Origin: Escherichia coli
GTDB lineage: Bacteria; Pseudomonadota; Gammaproteobacteria; Enterobacterales; Enterobacteriaceae
Reading direction: 5' to 3' (one strand)
DNA length: 64,000 nucleotides
Assembly: GCF_013315695.1 (NCBI RefSeq)
Contig: NZ_CP054353.1
The notes under the pieces: model-generated
Database searches by the model: none
What the model was told of the DNA's origin: nothing
Seen by the model: only the letters and a program-made list of their open reading frames with translations
In this document: positions 7,918-21,040 of the stretch, piece by piece
How positions within the stretch are numbered: the stretch's first letter is position 1
Layout of the letters: each line of letters opens with the position of its first letter
Program-made: the position numbers and the translations under genes

Positions 7918-10100
7918 TCTGCCTCCCGAACCAGCCAGATAGTGGCCAGCGGTGGTAGTGTCAGGCTTAGTGAATGCTGACGACCGTGGCTGGCAATCTC
8001 ATCGCTGTGTACCGTGCCGCCATTGCCGGCATTACTGCCGTGATAGTGCATGGAATCGGTATTGAGGATCTCACGCCATTTACCCGGCTGGTTAATGCCG
8101 AAGCGATAATCATGACGCGGCACCGGAGTAAAGTTACTGGCAACGATGATTTCGTTACCCTCTTTATCGCGACGCACAAAGATCAGCACCGAGCGTTCTT
8201 TGTCATCCACCACCAGCCATTCAAAGCCGTACGGGTCAAAATCCAGTTCATGCATTGCTTTATGGTGGCGGTAGGTGAGGTTCAGATCGCGCACCAGACG
8301 CTGGACACCGTGGTGCCAGTTATCGCCGCCTTCCAACAGATGCCAGTCGAGGCTGGCGTCATGGTTCCACTCGCGGCCCTGGGCAAATTCGTTCCCCATG
8401 AACAGCAGTTTCTTGCCCGGGAATGCCCACATCCAGCCATAGTAGGCGCGCAGGTTAGCGAATTTCTGCCATGCGTCGCCCGGCATCCGGTCGAGAATCG
8501 ATTTTTTACCGTGGACCACTTCATCATGCGACAACGGTAGGACGAAGTTTTCAGTGTAGTTGTAGAGCATCCCGAAGGTCAGTTTATCGTGATGATACTG
8601 ACGATAAATCGGGTCGAGCTTCATGTAGTCCAGGGTGTCATGCATCCAGCCGAGGTTCCACTTGTACCAGAAGCCCAGACCGCCCATATCCTGTGGACGA
8701 GAAACGCCAGGGAAATCGGTAGACTCCTCCGCCATTGTCACCGCACCGGAAACCTGCTCACCAAGAATACGGTTGGTATTACGCAAGAATTCAATCGCTT
8801 CAAGATTCTCGCGACCGCCAAATTCGTTCGGGATCCACTCCCCCTCTTTACGGCTGTAGTCGCGATAAATCATTGACGCCACCGCATCGACGCGCAGCGC
8901 ATCAATACCAAAACGTTCAATCCAGTAAAGCGCGTTACCGACAAGGAAGTTACTAACTTCACGGCGACCATAGTTGTAGATCAGCGTGTTCCAGTCCTGA
9001 TGATAGCCTTCGCGCGGATCGCTGTGTTCATACAAGTTCGTGCCATCAAATTCGGCAAGCGCAAAGTCATCGGTCGGGAAGTGGCCTGGCACCCAGTCGA
9101 GAATCACGTTCAGACCAGCTGCGTGTGCGGCATCAATGAAATAACGGAAGTCGTCGCGAGTACCAAAACGGCGGGTCGGTGCATACAGGCCGGTTGGCTG
9201 ATAACCCCAACTGCCATCGAAGGGATGCTCGTTAATGGGCAGTAGCTCGAGATGGGTAAAGCCCATCCATTTAGCATAAGGCACAAGTTGATCGGCCAGC
9301 TCGCGGTAGCTTAACCAGAAATTGTTGTCGGTGTGGCGACGCCAGGAGCCCAGGTGAACTTCATAAATAGAGATTGGCGCATCAAACTGATTCGCTTTTT
9401 TGCGCTCTTCAGTCTGCACAACCTTTTCCGGCAGCCCGCAAATAAGAGACGCGGTTTCCGGGCGCATTTGCGCTTCGAAGGCATAAGGGTCGGACTTCAG
9501 ACGCAAGTTGCCATTGGCATCAATCATCTCATATTTATAGAGCTGACCGTTATGCGCCCCAGGGATAAACAGTTCCCAGATGCCGCTCTCTTTACGCAGG
9601 CGCATCGGATGACGGCGACCGTCCCAGTAGTTGAATTGCCCAACCACCGAGACCCGACGGGCGTTTGGAGCCCAGACAGAAAAACGCGTACCTGTGACGC
9701 CATCCATAGTATCTGCATGCGCGCCTAAGGTTTCATACGGGCGCAGGTGAGTACCTTCAGATAATAGCCAGGCATCCATTTCCTGGATTAGCGGACCAAA
9801 ACGGTAAGGATCATCTATCAGGTTTTGCTGACCATGCCAGACAACAGCCAACTGATAGCGGAAAAAATTCTTACGTCGCGGAATGACACCGCTAAAGAAT
9901 CCACGGGAGTCGAGACACTCCAGTTTTGCGAGTTTGCGCCCGGTTTTCGGTTCAATCACCCACACATCGGTAGCGTCGGGTAAAAGGGCACGGACTTCCA
10001 GTCCCGCGGTGGTTTTATGCATCCCCAGTACGGAAAAAGGATCCGCAAAATGGCCTGCAATTAGCGCGTTAATCACGTCTCTATCGATACGATCGGACAT
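7914..10100 (-). CDS. glgB: 1,4-alpha-glucan branching enzyme
   Basis: 728-aa ORF, GH13 branching-enzyme sequence; first gene of glgBXCAP. Confidence 0.97.
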
Positions 10101-10372
10101 GCTTGTCTTCCTGTTTTATTGTGTCACCCCATCCAACTGAATTTTTGACTTCTGGTTGTGACATTTTTTTGACCTGAACGGCGCAGCACTCTGTGCATCC
10201 TCTCTGCGTCGTCCTCACTTCAGGTAAGGCTGTGAATACTCGTGTATTCCGCCACCCTTAAAGAATAGCCAATGCTCTATTTAACTCCCGGTAAATCATG
10301 AAACATCTGCGCTTACTCCTGTATTACGCACTAGCAGGGGCGGCATCGCGCCCCAGATTTAATGAATAAAGA

Positions 10373-11476
10373 TTACGCCAGTTGACGAAGCATCCGACGC
10401 AGCGGCTCCGCGGCCCCCCACAGCAGCTGGTCGCCCACGGTAAAGGCTGACAGGAACTCCGGTCCCATATTCAGCTTACGCAGGCGGCCTACCGGCGTGG
10501 TCAGCGTGCCGGTAACGGCAGCTGGGGTTAGCTCACGCATAGTGATTTCCCGATCGTTCGGAACGACTTTCGCCCACGGATTGTGCGCAGCCAGCAGTTC
10601 TTCCACGGTCGGAATAGACACATCTTTTTTCAATTTAATAGTGAATGCCTGGCTGTGGCAGCGCAATGCCCCGACACGCACACATAAACCATCTACCGGA
10701 ATTACGGAAGATGTGTTGAGGATCTTGTTGGTTTCCGCCTGCCCTTTCCACTCTTCGCGGCTCTGACCGTTATCAAGCTGTTTGTCGATCCACGGAATCA
10801 GGCTACCCGCCAGCGGCACGCCAAAGTTATCTACCGGCAGCTCACCGCTACGGGTTAAGGTTGTGACTTTGCGTTCGATATCGAGAATAGCAGAGGACGG
10901 GGTCGCGAGTTCATCTGCCACATGGCCATACAGATGGCCCATCTGGGTTAATAACTCACGCATATGTCGCGCACCACCGCCGGAAGCGGCCTGGTAGGTT
11001 GCAACGGACACCCAATCAACAAGATCATTGGCGAATAAACCACCCAACGACATCAACATCAGGCTTACGGTACAGTTACCGCCAACAAAAGTCCTGATGC
11101 CATTATTTAATCCGTCGGTAATGACGTCCTGATTGACGGGGTCAAGAATGATGATGGCGTCATCTTTCATGCGCAGAGATGATGCTGCGTCAATCCAGTA
11201 ACCTTGCCATCCGCTTTCACGAAGCTTTGGATAGATTTCGTTGGTATAATCGCCGCCCTGACAGGTCACAATGATATCGAGGGCCTTTAGCGCCTCCAGA
11301 TCAAAGGCATCCTGAAGTGTGCCAGTGGTTCCGCCAAAAGACGGCGCAGCCTGACCAAGCTGAGAAGTAGAAAAGAAGACAGGGCGAATGGCGTCGAAGT
11401 CGCGCTCTTCAACCATGCGTTGCATGAGAACGGAGCCGACCATACCGCGCCAGCCGATAAAACCAACATTTTTCAT
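10373..11476 (-). CDS. asd: Aspartate-semialdehyde dehydrogenase
   Basis: ORF track starts 20 codons upstream; ATG at 11476 gives the 367-aa protein [17 protein letters not shown]... with the active-site [10 protein letters not shown]. Confidence 0.95.
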
Positions 11477-11667
11477 AAGCGTTTTTTCCTGCAAAGATGT
11501 GTGCTGTATAAATGTGCCGGTCTCCTCCTGGCACATCTTTCACCATACAAAAAGCAGCCAAAGTCGCAAGTGAAATTAATCAATGATAGCGAAGCCATCA
11601 GTAATGCGACTTATCCTGCTTTGTTAGCACGCAGAAAGTCCGCGGCAATTATCAGGGAATTTGAGTT

Positions 11668-12261
11668 ATGAATGAAATCATTTCTGCAGCAGTTTTATTG
11701 ATCCTGATTATGGATCCGCTCGGAAACCTACCTATTTTCATGTCCGTACTGAAACATACTGAACCGAAAAGACGGCGGGCAATCATGGTGCGAGAGTTGC
11801 TTATTGCTCTCCTGGTGATGCTGGTGTTCCTGTTTGCGGGTGAGAAAATTCTGGCATTTCTCAGCCTGCGAGCAGAAACCGTCTCCATTTCTGGCGGCAT
11901 CATTCTGTTTCTGATCGCCATTAAGATGATTTTCCCCAGCGCTTCAGGAAATAGCAGCGGGCTTCCGGCAGGTGAAGAGCCGTTTATCGTGCCGTTGGCA
12001 ATTCCGTTAGTCGCCGGGCCGACTATTCTCGCCACGCTGATGTTGTTGTCTCATCAGTACCCGAATCAGATGGGACATCTGGTAATTGCTCTGCTGCTGG
12101 CCTGGGGTGGCACCTTTGTCATCCTGCTACAGTCTTCGCTATTTTTACGTCTGCTGGGCGAGAAAGGGGTGAATGCACTTGAACGCCTGATGGGATTGAT
12201 TCTGGTGATGATGGCAACTCAGATGTTCCTCGACGGCATTCGAATGTGGATGAAGGGGTAA
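11668..12261 (+). CDS. yhgN: MarC-family (UPF0056) inner-membrane protein
   Basis: 197-aa hydrophobic ORF, divergent from asd. Confidence 0.9.
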   Translation: MNEIISAAVLLILIMDPLGNLPIFMSVLKHTEPKRRRAIMVRELLIALLVMLVFLFAGEKILAFLSLRAETVSISGGIILFLIAIKMIFPSASGNSSGLPAGEEPFIVPLAIPLVAGPTILATLMLLSHQYPNQMGHLVIALLLAWGGTFVILLQSSLFLRLLGEKGVNALERLMGLILVMMATQMFLDGIRMWMKG

Positions 12262-12269
12262 GGTTCAAA

Positions 12270-12306
12270 CAGGTGCTGCACACAACCAGACGCGGCACCT
12301 GTTTTA
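12270..12306 (+). terminator. Rho-independent terminator of yhgN
   Basis: CAGGTGC (12270..12276) pairs with GCACCTG (12295..12301), followed by TTTT; ends immediately before the stop of the DprA-like gene on the other strand. Confidence 0.6.
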
Positions 12307-13509
12307 TTACCTGAACTGATAATGACCTTCGCCCAATCGAATAACCCTTCCCTCTTCTTCTGCGCGGTTCAGCCACACACTAATTTGTTCGATGGTTAAA
12401 CCAGTACAAGACGCCAGCCTTTCAATACTTATCGATTCCTTTGCAAGGATCGCCAGTTCCGCCACAAAGAGTTGATAAAAATCGACAGGCGTATGCGCGG
12501 GCATTACTGCGTAATTTGCGTCATCTTCATGCAGCGAAAACAGTTCTGGTTGAACGTTACGGAGTGCTTTGTCATACATCAGCCCAGGAACGTCTGGCAG
12601 TCTGATCGTCACATTCTCAGCCTGTTCAGCACTCCATGACGCCCCATTTTCTACTAATCGTGAATTGGCTGATTGCACATCCTGATTTGGTTTAACCAGA
12701 ACAGGCAGCCACTGATGTTTTAACGCCTCCATCGCTCCGGTTATCGTTCCACCGGTCATTCCCGCACGTACAACCATTGCGCTTTCAGCAAGGCAATAAA
12801 TATATTTATTCCGCGCCATTGCATTGCCGACGGTGAAACGTACCTCTGGGTAAAACGGTGAAATCAACACCAGGTTGCCTGCTATAAGCCCTTCACGCCA
12901 TTTCACTAACGTACTCGTTTTTAACAAGCTATCAGCTAATACGCCAACGGCAGTTCCCCCGGCCTCCAGTGCCGACGCCATTGCACATTCATCAATACCT
13001 CGCGCACCACCAGAGATAACGCAAATCCCCTGTTGGGCCAGTTTCGCTGCCAGTTGTTGGGTATAGCGCAAATCGGCAGTCGGAGCATCTCGCGAGCCAA
13101 CAATCGCCATACCTTCCGCTTGCAGTAATGCTTTATTCCCGCAGCCAAATAAAACGGGAGGTGCATCCGTTCGCAATCGGTTTTTCAAGCGAACGGGATA
13201 ATCGGCATCTCCGCGGGTTAAGATCCATAAACCGGCGCGTTGCCACTTATCTACCGCCAACGCCAGACTATGACCACGCGCCAGCAAGCCAAGAATACGC
13301 TCCTGAGAAATACGCGGATCGCTCCAGCCTGTAAGTTTCTCTTGCGGTTGCGGCACCAGAAGATCGGCGGGACTGATACGTTGGTGCTTCAGCCATAATG
13401 CAAACTTCCCCCATTCACTATTACTAAGAGGTTTATACTCACTCGCCGCCGCGCGAGAAAAATCGCTGGTTAGCAGGAGAGTTGCTTGTGCATTGGCTGA
13501 AAGATTCAT
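12307..13509 (-). CDS. DprA/Smf-like protein; putative partner (PsyrA/RqlI-like) of the upstream helicase
   Basis: 400 aa from ATG at 13509..13507 (the ORF-track start at 13602 lies inside the upstream gene). Rossmann motif VISGGARGIDECAMASAL typical of DprA, and a C-terminal winged-helix-like tail. Start shares one base with the upstream stop (TGATG). Confidence 0.75.
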   Translation of the reverse strand: MNLSANAQATLLLTSDFSRAAASEYKPLSNSEWGKFALWLKHQRISPADLLVPQPQEKLTGWSDPRISQERILGLLARGHSLALAVDKWQRAGLWILTRGDADYPVRLKNRLRTDAPPVLFGCGNKALLQAEGMAIVGSRDAPTADLRYTQQLAAKLAQQGICVISGGARGIDECAMASALEAGGTAVGVLADSLLKTSTLVKWREGLIAGNLVLISPFYPEVRFTVGNAMARNKYIYCLAESAMVVRAGMTGGTITGAMEALKHQWLPVLVKPNQDVQSANSRLVENGASWSAEQAENVTIRLPDVPGLMYDKALRNVQPELFSLHEDDANYAVMPAHTPVDFYQLFVAELAILAKESISIERLASCTGLTIEQISVWLNRAEEEGRVIRLGEGHYQFR

Positions 13510-15605
13510 CAATTTTTTACCGAGGTAGAAGCAAGGGCAAGAGGATAAACCGTCGGGCAACCTGCCTGGCGTAACAGTGCTGTCAGAACTGTCAGCGTCC
13601 ATGCAGAATCCACGATATCATCAACCAGCAACGCCGGACCTGGCATCAAAGGAGGGGTAATCACAAACGCCCCGTCGAGATTTTGACACTGGTGAAAACG
13701 GTTTTGCTGCATTTTCTGCGGTGGATTGTCCACGACTTTTTCAATGGCATCAATAAAAGGTAAGCCAAGTTTCGCCGCCAGTCGCCGGGCAAAATCAGGA
13801 ACCAGGTCGAGGTGCCTTAATGAAGGAACGCAGCATACCCAGGTTGGTTCAGGATGCGGATTCCAGCGTTGGCGAACCATTTCCGCACATGCTTCTACCA
13901 GCTCATCACTTAAGCGCCCCGTTTTTTTCTCCTGTGCTACCTGCTTTCCCCACCCGGAATCTCCCCAACGAGAAAGGATTCGCCCCGTAGATCCTTGTAA
14001 ACCCGCAGGCAAGTTCCCTTTAAATCCGTATTGCGTAAAAGCCCCAGCTGCCACCTGTTTATTGAGATTTAACGGCAGGTCAGCGTGTTTAATAAATAAA
14101 TTTGCCGCATGGAGTAAGCCGCTATCAATGTCGGGCGACAATAACGGATGCTGAAGACAACTGCTACATTTACCACAACGTTCGGCACTTGGCTCATCGA
14201 GTGCACGGCGCAGAAATTGCATTTTGCACTCCTTGGTCGTGATATAGCTTTCAACGTCTGCCAGTTCACTTTTTCTCTGATTCATCAAATGGTTAATTCG
14301 TTCATGATCAGGAGAAAAACTGACGATAGTTCTGCGCCATAATTTCTCGGTATACACCACAGGCGATGGATTTTCCGCTACCAATAATTTCAGTGCTTTT
14401 TCTATTTGCCCATAACGAAGATTCGTCCGTTGTTCAATGCCTCGTAGGGTAAGACCGTCATTCTCGCTAAGTACGTTGAGTATTTCATGAATTTGCGCCT
14501 CCGCAGGAAAGGCGCTTTCACGGAAGAATTGATGAATAGCGCGGTCTTCACCACCACAAAGCAATATGCCAACTGCGGAATCTATAGCACGCCCGGCACG
14601 CCCCACCTGTTGGTAGTAACCGACAATAGACCCCGGCATCTGATAATGAATGACGAAACCTAAATCAGGTTTATCAAACCCCATACCTAATGCCGTCGTC
14701 GCGACCAGCACTTTGATTTTATTTGCCAGCAGTGCCTGCTCCAGATATTCCCTGGCAGTATTAGAATCTTCCGCGCCTTCACAAGTCACGCCGCTGTAGT
14801 AAGCAAATGCACTGATACCATTTTTCCTTAACCACTCGGCGACAAGTTCAGCATCGCGAGTCGTCAGGGTATAAACAATTCCCGATTTGGAAAACTGAGG
14901 GATAACCGTTGCTAACCATGCCAGACGGGATGACTGTTCTCCTAAGACTAAGGCATCAAGCGCCAAACTTTCGCGAGCCAGCGTTCCACGCTGAATCACA
15001 ATGTCACCCAATTGCTGACGGATATCCTCAACAACACGGTTATTCGCTGTCGCGGTTGTACCCAGAACAGGGGTATTCGCAGGCAGTTGGCGCAAAATAT
15101 CTAATATACGTCGGTAATCCGGGCGAAAATCGTGGCCCCAATCAGAGATGCAGTGCGCCTCGTCGACCACAAGCAAGCCAATACGATCGGCTATAGGATA
15201 TAAAACCGTTTCGATAAAGTCCTGGTTTGCCAAACGTTCCGGGGAAACCAGCAAGCAATCGACCTCACCTTGCAGCAACTTATCGCTAATGCGCTGCCAT
15301 TCTTCCCTGTTTGTAGAATTCAACGTTTCAGCCGTAATACCTAACCGTTCAGCGGCGGCAACCTGGTTACGCATCAGGGCAAGCAAAGGAGAGATGATAA
15401 TTGTCGGGCCAGCGCCGCGATCGCGGAAGATTTTACTGGCGATGAAGTACACGGCACTTTTCCCCCAGCCGGTGCGCTGTACAACCAGCAGTTTTCGCCG
15501 CTGATTAACCACTGCATCTATGGCTTCCCATTGCCCTTCCCTGAAAGTAGCGGTGGTATTTCCTAACATCCGCTGTAAAAGCAATTCAGCTCCGTGCTTT
15601 TCCAT
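13509..15605 (-). CDS. RecQ-like DEAH helicase fused to a C-terminal ComF-type PRTase-like domain (PsyrT/RqlH-like)
   Basis: 698 aa. Helicase motifs TGWGKS, VVDEAHCISDWGHDFRPDY, LGTTATA, ATTALGMGFDKPD, YYQQVGRAGRA; CGKCSSC zinc-like motif; C-terminal segment with LLVDDIVDSAWT resembling the PRPP-binding loop of type-I PRTases. Confidence 0.8.
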   Translation of the reverse strand: MEKHGAELLLQRMLGNTTATFREGQWEAIDAVVNQRRKLLVVQRTGWGKSAVYFIASKIFRDRGAGPTIIISPLLALMRNQVAAAERLGITAETLNSTNREEWQRISDKLLQGEVDCLLVSPERLANQDFIETVLYPIADRIGLLVVDEAHCISDWGHDFRPDYRRILDILRQLPANTPVLGTTATANNRVVEDIRQQLGDIVIQRGTLARESLALDALVLGEQSSRLAWLATVIPQFSKSGIVYTLTTRDAELVAEWLRKNGISAFAYYSGVTCEGAEDSNTAREYLEQALLANKIKVLVATTALGMGFDKPDLGFVIHYQMPGSIVGYYQQVGRAGRAIDSAVGILLCGGEDRAIHQFFRESAFPAEAQIHEILNVLSENDGLTLRGIEQRTNLRYGQIEKALKLLVAENPSPVVYTEKLWRRTIVSFSPDHERINHLMNQRKSELADVESYITTKECKMQFLRRALDEPSAERCGKCSSCLQHPLLSPDIDSGLLHAANLFIKHADLPLNLNKQVAAGAFTQYGFKGNLPAGLQGSTGRILSRWGDSGWGKQVAQEKKTGRLSDELVEACAEMVRQRWNPHPEPTWVCCVPSLRHLDLVPDFARRLAAKLGLPFIDAIEKVVDNPPQKMQQNRFHQCQNLDGAFVITPPLMPGPALLVDDIVDSAWTLTVLTALLRQAGCPTVYPLALASTSVKN

Positions 15606-15707
15606 CTTTATCTCCTGCGATCTTTAGGCAGTGATTAGAACGGATTATTAGCAGGTAAATTTGCGAGAGAGATCAAAAAGATGAAGAGAGGAGATAAGAG
15701 AAATGAA

Positions 15708-15735
15708 TTACTGCGAGCAAGCTCGCAGTAATTTG
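15708..15735 (-). terminator. Terminator-like perfect hairpin downstream of gntU
   Basis: TTACTGCGAGC-AA-GCTCGCAGTAA at 15708..15731, about 14 nt past the gntU stop, with T-rich flank. Confidence 0.5.
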
Positions 15736-15744
15736 TCGCAGTAA

Positions 15745-17085
15745 TTAACTCAACAGCTGGAACGCAATCATCCCAACGATGGCACCAACAGTGCCGAGTA
15801 TGGTTTCCATCATGGTCCAGGTTTTCAGCGTTTCGGCTTCGGTCGCGCCGGTAAATTTACCGAACAACCAGAAACCGGCGTCGTTAACGTGGCTGACAAC
15901 AATCGAACCACCGGCGATACAAATCGACAGCGCCGCCATTTGCGCACCGGAGTAGTTCAGTTGTTCAATAACCGGCATCACCAGTCCCACCGCCGTTAAA
16001 CAGGCAACGGTGGCAGAACCCTGAATGATGCGCACTGCAGCTGCCAGCACGAAGCAGGTGATGGCAATCGGCAGGCCCATGCCGGTTAACGCTTCGCCCA
16101 GTGCCGGACCTACGCCTGAGTCAACCAGCACCTGTTTGAACACGCCGCCCGCACCAATCACCAGCAGAATGATCCCCGCCGGTTGCAGCGCGTGACCGCA
16201 AATTTCCATCACTTTATCTTTCGGCATGCCCTGACGCATTGCCAGACCGTAAATCGCCACCAGGCAAGCAACCAGAATCGCGGTAAACGGATGACCAATA
16301 AACTCGAACCATTCGTAAGCAGTAGAGCCTTCTGGCACAAAACGCGCGGCAATGGTTTTCAGCCCCACCAGCACCAGTGGCAACAGGATCAGCGACAGGC
16401 TGAATCCGAAGGACGGCATTTTGCCTTCGCCGAGATGCGGTTCGCTGATGTCGTCAGGAATATGCAACTCCACGTAGCGGCTGATGAAATTACCCCACAG
16501 CGGCCCGGCAATAATCATTCCCGGAATTGCCGCACACAGGCCAATCAGGATCATCCAGCCAAAGTCGGCGTTCATCTGCGATGCCAGCAGCATTGGCGCT
16601 GGTCCAGGCACCAGGAACGCAGCCGCGGCCGCCACGCCTGCAAATAATGGGATTACCAGCTTCACCAGGTTCGTACCGGTGTGGCGCGCCATTGAGAAAG
16701 CAACGCTAATCAGCAGAACAATCGCCACTTCAAAGAACAACGGCAACGCACAGACCAGCCCCGCAAGGCCGATGGCATAATGCGCGCGGCTGTGACCGAA
16801 GGATTTGAGCATTTTGACGGCAATCTGATCGACTGCGCCGGTTTCATGTAAGATCTTGCCAAACATGGCTCCCAGGGCGACAACCACCGCCAGGAAGCCG
16901 AGGGTGCCTCCCATCCCTTTTTCCATCGTCGCTGCGATTTTATCGAGCGGCATACCGGAAAAAAGGCCAGCCCCCATAGACACCACCATTAAAGCCAGGA
17001 AAGCGTGCATACGCGCCTTCATGACTAAAAACAGCAGCAGTAAAACAGACCCTACTGCTGTTAAAACAAGCGTTAATGTAGTCAC
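15745..17085 (-). CDS. gntU: Low-affinity gluconate:H+ symporter
   Basis: 446-aa GntP-family permease; annotated start is GTG at 17085..17083, 3 nt after the gntK stop (see finding on the internal hairpin). Confidence 0.9.
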   Translation of the reverse strand: MTTLTLVLTAVGSVLLLLFLVMKARMHAFLALMVVSMGAGLFSGMPLDKIAATMEKGMGGTLGFLAVVVALGAMFGKILHETGAVDQIAVKMLKSFGHSRAHYAIGLAGLVCALPLFFEVAIVLLISVAFSMARHTGTNLVKLVIPLFAGVAAAAAFLVPGPAPMLLASQMNADFGWMILIGLCAAIPGMIIAGPLWGNFISRYVELHIPDDISEPHLGEGKMPSFGFSLSLILLPLVLVGLKTIAARFVPEGSTAYEWFEFIGHPFTAILVACLVAIYGLAMRQGMPKDKVMEICGHALQPAGIILLVIGAGGVFKQVLVDSGVGPALGEALTGMGLPIAITCFVLAAAVRIIQGSATVACLTAVGLVMPVIEQLNYSGAQMAALSICIAGGSIVVSHVNDAGFWLFGKFTGATEAETLKTWTMMETILGTVGAIVGMIAFQLLS

Positions 17086-19669: not shown

Positions 19670-19791
19670 TTGTATTCGCCCCCTGAATGTTTTCGATGGG
19701 CTTAGTGTGGACCCGATCTGCCTGGGATGATAGAGGGTGAAAATTGACCCCTCTGTTCAAAAAAATTGAACTATTCGAGGGGCCATCAAAC

Positions 19792-20829
19792 TTACTTCGC
19801 GAGAGTCACTGTGGAGGGAGAGGCTTGCTCAAAACCGCGTTCAAGGATTTCCAAATTGGTAAGAACTTCAGATTCCTTGACGTAATTTGGCGCACCATTG
19901 GTGATGGTTTGGTACAACGCATCATAAACGCGCCCGTAATCGCCCATCTCTGGCTTCATCTCTTCTCTGACCGTCACGCCTTCGTCATTGACATACTCCA
20001 GCACACCGACCGAATCATCCGCTGCGAATCCTGGTTCGCCCGGCATAATATTAGCCTTCAGGCTGGTTTCCTGCTGGTCGATACCGTATTTAATAAACGA
20101 ACCTTTCTTACCGTGAACGATAAATTTCGGATAATCGATTTTCACCAGATGGCTGGTTTTGACGATGGCTTTTAGATCGCCATAAAACAGCTGCGCTTCA
20201 AAGGTGTCGTCCGGATTGGCTTTATTACGCAGGCTGCGGATGTCATAAGCGACGTGATCCGGGCGACCGAACAGAGAAATAATCTGGTCCATCGTATGCA
20301 CACCAAGGCCATAGAACGCGCCATCCTGCGGCAGCCCAGGTTTGGTTTCTGCCACCGGGCGGTAATAGTCAAAATGGCTTTCCACTTCAACAATCTCTCC
20401 CAGCTTACCGCTTTCAATCGCTTTTTTCGCCGTCAGGAAGCAGGAATCAAAGCGACGATTCTGATACGGCGTGACGGTCAGCCCTTTGCTTTTCGCCAAC
20501 GCAAACAGCGCCTTCGCCTGGGCAAGCGTCGGGGTGAACGGTTTTTCGACCAGCACATTTTTCCCGGCTTCCAGCGCGCGCTTCGCGTATTCGAAATGGC
20601 TATCCGCGTGGGTGCAGACGACAACCAGCTTAACATCGGGATCGTTTAGCACTTCGTCGAGATCGCTGGTGAAATGGATATGAGAGTAAATGGGAGCCTG
20701 TTCTTCCGGCTTCGCATGGCGGCGAAAAATATGCGCGACATGCCAGCTATCCTTGCGGTTAAGTACATACGGCAGATGGTAACGGGTGGTGCTTTTGCCG
20801 AAGCCAATAAAGGCGCAGTTGATGACCAT
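19792..20829 (-). CDS. yhhX: Gfo/Idh/MocA-family NAD(P)-dependent oxidoreductase
   Basis: 345-aa ORF; N-terminal Rossmann INCAFIGFGKSTTRYHLPY. Confidence 0.9.
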   Translation of the reverse strand: MVINCAFIGFGKSTTRYHLPYVLNRKDSWHVAHIFRRHAKPEEQAPIYSHIHFTSDLDEVLNDPDVKLVVVCTHADSHFEYAKRALEAGKNVLVEKPFTPTLAQAKALFALAKSKGLTVTPYQNRRFDSCFLTAKKAIESGKLGEIVEVESHFDYYRPVAETKPGLPQDGAFYGLGVHTMDQIISLFGRPDHVAYDIRSLRNKANPDDTFEAQLFYGDLKAIVKTSHLVKIDYPKFIVHGKKGSFIKYGIDQQETSLKANIMPGEPGFAADDSVGVLEYVNDEGVTVREEMKPEMGDYGRVYDALYQTITNGAPNYVKESEVLTNLEILERGFEQASPSTVTLAK

Positions 20830-20950
20830 GATTTCGTCCTTATTAAGGTGGTTATTTACACCTTAGCGCAAAGCGGATGTGGTTCCTACTGGAGTGCGCA
20901 TAACGAACACAAGCACTCTCGTGGATAAATTGAGAACGAAAGATCAAAAA

Positions 20951-21040
20951 AAAAGCCAGCACCCGGCTGGCTAAGTAATACTGGAAGCAATGTGAGCAAT
21001 GTCGTGCTTTCAGGTTCTCCGCGAGGGTCTTCCTGATCGC
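20951..21040 (-). ncRNA. ryhB: RyhB small RNA (Fur-repressed, Hfq-dependent)
   Basis: Reverse complement of 20951..21040 reads GCGATCAGGAAGACCCTCGCGGAGAACCTGAAAGCACGACATTGCTCACATTGCTTCCAGTATTACTTAGCCAGCCGGGTGCTGGCTTTT, the RyhB sequence as I know it, ending in a GCCAGC/GCTGGC terminator hairpin and U-tract. ORF-track entries 20852..21100 and 21010..21225 across it are spurious. Confidence 0.9.

Follow-up and report, generated by a model that had tools for sequence, protein, structure and literature searches.

The window analysed here, a stretch of 64,000 nucleotides of Escherichia coli DNA (assembly GCF_013315695.1, contig NZ_CP054353.1), carries a two-gene operon between a pair of convergent core genes, yhgN on the plus strand (11668..12261; a transporter of the NAAT/MarC family) and gntU on the minus strand (15745..17085; a gluconate transporter). 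Both flanks were recognised from their open reading frames and from alignment with other genomes, yhgN also from its annotation in matching genomes and from the junction alignment. The gap between them (12262..15744) has a GC content of 49.2%, against 52.7% and 46.8% in its flanks. Its two genes lie on the minus strand, co-directional with gntU, and both are intact: psyrT, or rqlH (13509..15605), encodes a RecQ-like SF2 helicase of 698 aa with a C-terminal phosphoribosyltransferase (PRTase) toxin domain, and psyrA, or rqlI (12307..13509), a DprA-like antitoxin of 400 aa with a SLOG Rossmann domain. The helicase gene comes first, and the ATG of psyrA (13507..13509) shares one nucleotide with the stop codon of psyrT (13509..13511) in the motif TGATG. 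The same order is found in all orthologous loci; the PsyrA orthologs have 391-401 aa, with a gene overlap of 4 nt. The initial annotation had described a two-gene cassette lying between two terminator hairpins, and its coordinates hold.

The identity of the pair is indicated by profile searches. PsyrT matches the PADLOC profile over positions 5-687 of 689 (E = 0, 1064 bits) and the Pfam families DEAD (4.9e-25) and Helicase_C (4.2e-13), with weak matches to RecQ_Zn_bind (1.4e-3) and to Pribosyltran (8.4e-3, residues 605-683). PsyrA matches its PADLOC profile over positions 1-397 of 398 (E = 5.8e-201), beginning at residue 32 of the long open reading frame, and the Pfam families DNA_processg_A (7.4e-50) and LDcluster4 (3.3e-11); it also matches the ShosA profiles (3.7e-27). 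Judged from these matches, the pair is the E. coli toxin–antitoxin and phage-defence operon already known as rqlHI, or PsyrTA (Sberro 2013; Millman 2022; PADLOC PDLC03927/03928): both profiles are covered over their full length, and the toxin and antitoxin roles would be as described for that system. The equivalence of PsyrTA and RqlHI was drawn by Millman et al. The RqlHI operon of ExPEC (Russell & Mulvey 2015, PMC4670107) resembles the one in the window in belonging to the same species, in having the helicase-PRTase gene upstream of an overlapping DprA-like gene, in being separate from its neighbour genes and missing from K-12 MG1655, and in combining a RecQ-like core with a PRTase in the region that is removed when RqlH is truncated after residue 509. 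The correspondence with the F11 proteins (EcF11_3932/3933) is drawn from the PADLOC models of PsyrT and PsyrA and from how B2 strains are annotated in RefSeq. Compared with a B2-type allele, the one in the window differs at about 2.9% of nucleotides. Experiments on the operon of E. coli F11 showed that the toxicity of the PRTase domain is neutralised by the partner protein (PMC4670107). Phage protection by PsyrTA was reported by Millman et al. for a homolog under heterologous expression, whereas the native PsyrTA of E. coli NILS69 gave no detectable phage protection in one study (bioRxiv 10.1101/2024.12.20.629700). The related ShosTA system (PMC11961720) likewise pairs a PRTase toxin with a DprA-like antidote and shows DNA damage and filamentation phenotypes, but ShosT lacks the RecQ helicase domain of PsyrT, and ShosTA has been reported as a type IV system in which toxin and antitoxin have no direct contact, whereas RqlH and RqlI co-immunoprecipitate.

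The non-coding ends of the gap are structured. Between the convergent yhgN and psyrA, a hairpin folds on both strands (12267..12308, with a 13-bp stem at 12267..12279 and 12292..12304), with energies of -25.1 kcal/mol for 12267..12304 (z = -5.1 against shuffled sequences) and -22.7 kcal/mol on the other strand (z = -3.4), and it is likely to be a bidirectional terminator. The psyrA stop codon starts at 12307, as had been noted (12307..12309); the T-run does not end at 12306, since the motif TTTTATT spans 12302..12308 and so overlaps the stop codon. At the other side, the start of the helicase gene at 15605 is indeed followed by about 100 nt and then a stem-loop (15706..15733, minus strand), recognised by folding and covariation, with a 12-bp stem (-16.6 kcal/mol, z = -4.1) lying 19-21 nt 3' of the gntU stop codon. 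Its core, CTGCGAG-N4-CTCGCAG at 15711..15728, is invariant in sequence and not just in pairing. The stem-loop is found in all 17 occupied loci and in no locus without psyrTA, and an RNAalifold consensus of six sequences has 12 pairs, of which 7 are invariant and 5 show compensatory double changes, with none broken. A search of 11500..16500 against Rfam gave no match. The stem-loop is presumably the terminator of gntU and an insulator of the toxin-first operon; because it lacks a strong U-tract in most lineages, the terminator role is one that we infer. The left hairpin occurs only with the occupied allele of E. coli, and each of the other genera has a different one. The names yhgN terminator and gntU terminator are an interpretation. 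Neither hairpin occurs in the empty site. Alignment of the gntU-psyrT gap across genera delimits the psyrT leader and presumed promoter region (15606..15705, minus strand), with a Shine-Dalgarno motif AGGAG (15612..15616) and conserved blocks TAAAT/TAATCA (15632..15637) and TTGAT..TC(G/A)CAA (15660..15679). A sigma-70 scan found no minus-strand site in 15606..15705, and the TTGAT and TAAAT blocks, about 33 nt apart, are too distant for a canonical -35/-10 pair.

Comparison with other E. coli genomes defined the empty and occupied sites and their exact junctions. Among 5426 complete genomes, the yhgN-gntU gap is occupied by psyrTA in 1641 (30%), empty in 3774 (about 70%) and in another state in about 9, the one of these that was examined having IS1397 within yhgN; the locus is essentially biallelic. 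As the initial annotation had stated for K-12, the K-12 derivative C600 has yhgN next to gntU, with 56 nt between them, and the same holds for BL21 and the other empty genomes. In the 7 occupied and 7 empty loci that were analysed in detail, homology between the two states ends at the TAA stop codon of yhgN and resumes at the stop codon of gntU, so that the alleles consist of 3483 nt and 56 nt of unrelated sequence. The 56-nt gap has a single hairpin, unrelated to either of those beside the cassette. A blastn-short comparison of the spacer with the 3483 nt gave chance matches of 7-12 nt only, none with more than 9 nt of perfect identity or an E-value below 0.5. We rejected the idea that the spacer is a diverged homolog of the gntU-side gap: both contain a purine-rich run and, after it, a hairpin, but they show no significant alignment. 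No remnant of the spacer, split or duplicated, and no target-site duplication is found beside the cassette. The pair had been proposed to be a clean insertion into a gap running from terminator to terminator, a proposal that fails on this point: nothing of the spacer is kept. Conversely, the 56-nt gap of K-12 is not recognisable as a deletion scar of the occupied allele. The junctions are identical across all occupied genomes. In keeping with what had first been noticed, we found no direct repeats of at least 6 nt across the two junctions and no integrase or IS open reading frame near the cassette. In O157:H7 the toxin gene is dead and shows ongoing decay.

The divergence of the cassette within E. 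coli speaks to its age. Between clades, 4-fold synonymous divergence is 0.044-0.066 in psyrA and 0.069-0.144 in psyrT, compared with 0.069-0.111 in gntU, 0.074-0.102 in gntR and 0.047-0.086 in glgB; the cassette matches the flanking core genes in divergence, and the insert is not younger than its flanks. The clades of the cassette mirror those of the flanks, and empty genomes also occur in each flank clade. Empty alleles also vary among themselves and turn up on every flank clade, the divergent AST85 among them. Recombination mosaics are seen inside the cassette and across the junctions, and the kilobase of flank beside the junction shows no excess divergence of the kind that marks imported tracts. 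In none of 5436 places in E. coli genomes is psyrTA on a plasmid, and the cassette has no match in PLSDB or in the phage collection. The site shares with the defence-island hotspots of E. coli (Hochhauser et al. 2023, PMC10121019) a variably occupied position between core genes that holds a defence system. The hotspot islands, however, have at least 10 genes and usually lie on mobile elements; their cargo varies and their median occupancy is 8%. The yhgN-gntU site holds a single, fixed cargo of two genes, is occupied in 30% of genomes, lacks the hallmarks of mobile elements and has co-diverged flanks and cargo; its behaviour is closer to that of the CRISPR I-E locus, which the same study describes as core-like. 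The description of the site as a landing place for defence islets stands in part: the cargo is a defence or toxin–antitoxin system and other small cargo occurs here across Enterobacteriaceae, but within E. coli the cargo does not vary, and integrases or transposases, att sites, target-site duplications and plasmid or phage copies were all missing.

The arrangement gntU–psyrT–psyrA recurs at this locus in Citrobacter freundii, Silvania hatchlandensis and three further lineages (loci L107, L109 and L116). These syntenic loci, found by a homologous-protein search for Citrobacter and Silvania, hold the nearest relatives of E. coli PsyrT (68-74% identity); a scan of genome contigs with PsyrT gave at least 600 matches, with at most 65% identity among the matches listed. 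Among the remaining relatives, the one whose locus was examined, from Proteus terrae (66%), is embedded in a type I R-M operon. The gntU-psyrT gap can be aligned across genera, and the flanks are highly conserved (94-97% amino-acid identity for GntU and about 95% for YhgN). Nei-Gojobori dS reaches saturation for the cassette when genera are compared, so divergence was measured at 4-fold sites of conserved codons instead. For C. freundii and L109, an unsaturated pair, cassette divergence (0.35) matches that of the flanks (0.23-0.33), whereas between E. coli and the other genera the cassette (0.62-0.72) exceeds the flanks (0.38-0.53). This excess could reflect lineages older than the host split, or lateral exchange, instead of strict co-inheritance; it could also come from weaker codon bias. 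Other Enterobacteriaceae carry different cargo in the same convergent gap, such as a pair of an 87-aa gene and a Fic gene, a 146-aa open reading frame, or extra genes beside psyrTA. A YhgN locus labelled 'Salmonella Choleraesuis' (L103, 83% identity), which looks mislabelled, has an unrelated gap of 309 nt; the YhgN protein clusters contained no member from E. albertii, E. fergusonii or authentic Salmonella.

A recent insertion of a two-gene defence cassette, illegitimate or site-specific but clean, between the existing terminators of a K-12-like ancestor would fit the occurrence of empty and occupied sites with the same flanking genes, the lack of mobility genes and the uniform junctions. We consider it very improbable, because the 56-nt target survives on neither side and was not duplicated, the cassette has diverged as far as the core genes between E. 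coli clades, other genera share both the arrangement and a homologous junction, and the flanking hairpins go with the cassette allele and not with the empty site. Just as improbable is that the palindrome CTGCGAG-N4-CTCGCAG serves a trans-acting recombinase as an integron- or dif-like recombination site, the pair then being a mobile cassette. The invariance of the core in sequence and the varied cargo of the gap across the family would suit such a site, but the palindrome is present in a single copy, at one side of the cassette, with no recombinase gene nearby; it is absent from loci with other cargo and from 80 distant psyrTA loci, and neither PLSDB nor the phage collection has it together with the cassette. 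We rejected this reading.

Our preferred reading, to which we give a probability of roughly three in four, is that 12262..15744 is a complete occupied allele, made of the PsyrTA (RqlHI) operon and its own non-coding ends, and one side of an old dimorphism. E. coli would hold two old gap alleles that cannot be aligned with each other, one of 3483 nt that includes psyrTA and one of 56 nt that lacks it. Both seem to have diverged along with the chromosome and, as the mosaic flanks suggest, to have been exchanged among backgrounds through homologous recombination in the conserved genes on either side. The occupied arrangement appears to predate the E. coli radiation and is common to Citrobacter, Silvania and other enteric lineages, so it would be either ancestral to the group or passed between genera by flank homology. 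Strict vertical ancestry, with psyrTA fixed here in the ancestor of Escherichia and Citrobacter and a derived empty state, K-12 included, later spread through E. coli by recombination, is a possibility that we rate well short of even. It accords with the synteny across genera and the close kinship of the syntenic cassettes, the conserved non-coding junction, the co-divergence of cassette and flanks both within E. coli and for C. freundii and L109, and the decaying toxin gene of O157:H7. Against it are the diversity of the empty allele and its spread over all flank clades including AST85, the excess synonymous divergence of the cassette between genera, and the unrelated gap content of other enterobacteria; moreover, the occupied allele does not contain the 56-nt spacer, which does not suit a simple deletion scar. 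That the pair is ancestral and was deleted in K-12 thus finds support in its age at the locus and its synteny, and none in a scar. We hold equally tentatively the alternative that the cassette and its gntU-side junction were passed repeatedly from one species or genus to another by homologous recombination in gntU and yhgN, the shared location resulting from the transfer mechanism and not from common descent. The conservation of GntU and YhgN, the same excess of cassette over flank divergence, the mosaics within the cassette and over the junctions in E. coli, and the patchy presence in each genus all favour such exchange, but the flank kilobase by the junction has no excess divergence, C. freundii and L109 co-diverged, and no mobile vector with the cassette was seen in PLSDB or the phage collection.

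The ends that belong to the occupied allele are a stem-loop after gntU that appears to be selectively maintained, a conserved leader and a 3' hairpin shared with yhgN. From the literature, the PRTase domain of the PsyrT/RqlH helicase would be genotoxic, the DprA-like PsyrA/RqlI would bind and neutralise it, and the toxin would be set free once the supply of antidote fails, e.g. in phage-induced shut-off. Most likely, the stem-loop that follows gntU blocks gluconate-induced gntKU transcription from entering the toxin-first operon. We think it rather unlikely, though worth stating, that this invariant element is more than a terminator, e.g. a PsyrA operator or an attenuator tying the toxin operon to gluconate-induced gntKU, within a long-lived and possibly trans-specific balanced polymorphism of presence and absence that has no mobility machinery.

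The system is already known, and the locus is most probably an old dimorphism exchanged through flank homology, not a fresh insertion. The main value of our analysis is this correction: a defence or toxin–antitoxin pair that sits between convergent core genes without marks of mobility may look freshly landed and yet be an old chromosomal allele that other genera share and that is exchanged by way of flank homology, which bears on how defence islets are counted and dated. It also bears on how one interprets the prevalence of PsyrTA across E. coli phylogroups (the toxin gene of O157:H7 is dead) and on the regulation of rqlHI, a fitness determinant of ExPEC, for which the conserved stem-loop and leader are concrete targets.

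The yhgN–gntU cassette is a known system, PsyrTA, also named RqlHI (Millman et al.): the 698-aa helicase protein matches the PADLOC PsyrT model end to end (E = 0, 1064 bits), with Pfam DEAD and Helicase_C domains and weak RecQ_Zn_bind and Pribosyltran matches, and the DprA-like protein, which carries DNA_processg_A/SLOG, matches the PsyrA model end to end (5.8e-201). Russell and Mulvey studied the RqlHI operon in ExPEC, where RqlH and RqlI co-immunoprecipitate, and both genes are missing from MG1655 (PMC4670107). In the related ShosTA system, a PRTase toxin that disrupts purine metabolism has a DprA-like partner that binds DNA and serves as antidote (PMC11961720). In the RefSeq/PGAP annotation, the DprA-like gene of the window encodes 431 aa and shares 94 nt with the helicase gene (extra part 13510-13602, minus strand). 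Since the PsyrA profile match begins at residue 32 of this long ORF and orthologs in other genera have 391–401 aa, the real psyrA is 12307..13509 (minus strand, 400 aa); its ATG at 13509 shares one base with the stop codon of psyrT (TGATG).

The left part of the window holds glgB–asd on the minus strand, followed by yhgN (11668..12261, plus strand), psyrA (stop codon at 12307..12309), psyrT (start at 15605), gntU (15745..17085), gntK and gntR, all minus-strand after yhgN. A 13-bp stem followed by TTTTATT lies on the yhgN side (12267..12304), and a stem-loop with a 12-bp stem on the gntU side (15706..15733, minus strand); compared with shuffled sequence both are far more stable, the first at -25.1 kcal/mol (z = -5.1) and the second at -16.6 kcal/mol (z = -4.1). 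The initial annotation had placed these hairpins, the DprA-like stop and the helicase start correctly, and it rightly reported neither repeats nor mobility genes: no direct repeat of at least 6 nt links the two junctions, and the ORFs near the cassette include neither integrase nor IS.

Of 5,426 complete E. coli genomes searched by megablast with 12100..15900, 5,424 have the flanks and 1,641 the full cassette (always chromosomal, 97.2–100% identity); the empty-site query reached a coverage of at least 80% in 3,774, and about 9 genomes fit neither standard allele. The E. coli locus thus has essentially two alleles, with psyrTA as sole cargo. One of the leftover genomes, SK0189, carries IS1397 in the 3' part of yhgN, adjoining an intact psyrTA (locus L115, 1488-3516). 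In BL21, O104:H4, C600 and other empty genomes, yhgN and gntU are 56 nt apart, which bears out their adjacency in K-12, of which C600 is a derivative. This gap contains a single hairpin, GCCCGGTAG-N8-CTACCGGGC, and is common to the seven empty genomes compared (0–3 SNPs); the junctions are identical in all seven occupied ones. When the alleles are aligned, similarity ends directly after the yhgN TAA and restarts at the gntU TAA, and the 56-nt spacer has no match above chance 9-mers in the 3483-nt occupied allele. No "target" sequence therefore lies beside the cassette, whose hairpins are not the empty-site terminators. The proposal of a clean insertion between existing terminators thus finds no support: the difference is a replacement polymorphism.

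Cassettes diverge by up to 4.25% between E. coli lineages and form three clades (the window, 21AH006 and SC516; CEC13091, THO-010 and S56; Ecol_656) that mirror those of the flanks. Every flank clade also contains empty genomes: 19AR0646 and Z1002 group with the window, BL21, C600 and O104:H4 with the second clade, and A37 with the B2-type Ecol_656. Between clades, divergence at 4-fold synonymous sites (conserved codons only) is 0.044–0.066 in psyrA and 0.069–0.144 in psyrT, level with gntU (0.069–0.111), gntK (0.075–0.100), gntR (0.074–0.102) and glgB (0.047–0.086). In E. coli the cassette is as old as the chromosome around it. Its GC content is host-like, and no plasmid or phage copies were found in the 5,426 genomes or in plasmid and phage collections. 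Mosaics indicate recombination inside and around it: the window (12307-15605) and 21AH006 (L088) differ at 0/341 4-fold sites in psyrT, 7/203 in psyrA and 12/262 in gntU, and identity in psyrT beside differences in psyrA points to exchange within the cassette.

Relatives of PsyrT fall into three tiers: a single 90% cluster of E. coli and Shigella, plus truncated S. sonnei forms; a tier at 68–74% identity; and a broad one spanning many families (64–67% among the matches listed). Every examined member of the second tier sits at the same locus, gntR–gntK–gntU–psyrT–psyrA–(yhgN)–asd–glgB, namely those of Citrobacter freundii, Silvania hatchlandensis, the metagenomic lineages L107 and L109, and L116. 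In the enterobacterial L116, psyrA and yhgN are separated by four extra genes (8294-11451: AIM24-domain, 148-aa ORF, metallophosphatase, DUF4440); its gntU–psyrT junction and hairpin are unchanged, so the variable side of the gap is that of yhgN. In a Proteus terrae lineage (66% PsyrT identity; L117/L118, 1634-11743) the pair lies within a type I R-M operon, hsdM-hsdS-psyrT-psyrA-hsdR, and adjoins phage-like regulators, an island-type context very unlike the enteric locus. Between C. freundii and L109, an unsaturated pair, 4-fold divergence of the cassette (0.35) matches that of the flanks (0.23–0.33). When E. coli is compared with the other genera, the cassette exceeds the flanks (0.62–0.72 versus 0.38–0.53); lateral exchange, cassette lineages that split earlier, or a weaker codon bias would each fit this excess. 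Elsewhere in enterobacteria the gap holds an 87-aa ORF with a Fic-domain protein (L111, 3646-4655; PADLOC PDC-S04, 1e-25), an unannotated 146-aa ORF (L113, 4238-4678), a YdgH/BhsA-like gene (L105, 3700-3915, in a lineage without gntU called at the locus) or an unrelated 309-nt spacer. This variety of cargo across the family lends the idea of a landing site partial support.

The gntU–psyrT gap can be aligned across genera, and the core of its stem-loop, CTGCGAG-N4-CTCGCAG, is invariant; all 12 pairs are kept, five of them through compensatory double changes. This stem-loop occurs in 17/17 occupied loci and in no examined locus without psyrTA; the K-12-type hairpin is restricted, among the loci compared, to the ten E. 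coli empty ones. Between psyrA and yhgN there is likewise always a hairpin, of different sequence in each genus. The gntU-side stem-loop is probably a gntKU terminator shielding the toxin-first operon, and would stop gntKU transcription short of it. Most lineages have a weak U-tract here, and the core is invariant not only in pairing but in sequence, which makes an additional role possible. The gap also has two cross-genus conserved blocks, TTGAT..TC(G/A)CAA (15660-15679, minus strand; palindromic in L107) and TAAAT/TAATCA (15632-15637, minus strand). Lying ~33 nt apart, they are too distant for a standard -35/-10 pair, and may represent an operator and a -10 element; the search for a promoter in this gap found none.

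The gap is best read as an old dimorphism. The occupied allele, common to E. coli and sister genera, would carry its own ends, anchored on the gntU side, and within E. coli would be inherited with the chromosome and exchanged via the flanks. Cross-genus synteny favours an occupied ancestral state in Escherichia, but the 56-nt allele is no deletion scar, and is itself widespread and diverse. Earlier publications already describe the system, its occurrence in E. coli and the constancy of its genomic context (PMC4670107; bioRxiv 10.1101/2022.08.21.504612; bioRxiv 10.64898/2025.12.14.694197); the replacement alleles, cross-genus synteny and linked covarying hairpin add incremental fine structure.

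A few kb from the cassette, the interval between yhhY and ggt is also variable (window ~19700-21000; downstream of yhhY in loci L084-L096): it holds tssD-yrhA-yrhD, a DUF4225 gene or nothing, depending on the strain. In O157:H7-type genomes (EDL933, L119 6031-8155; CEC13091, L085 9410-11534; matching window 13509-15605), psyrT has three lesions and is a pseudogene: codon 172 carries a 1-nt deletion, a CAA>TAA change creates a nonsense codon, and 29 nt near the PRTase domain are tandemly duplicated. As psyrA is intact, decay was toxin-first. PsyrTA was reported as enriched in phylogroup E2 (OR 7.8; bioRxiv 10.1101/2022.08.21.504612), and surveys of this enrichment may be tallying a dead PsyrT toxin.
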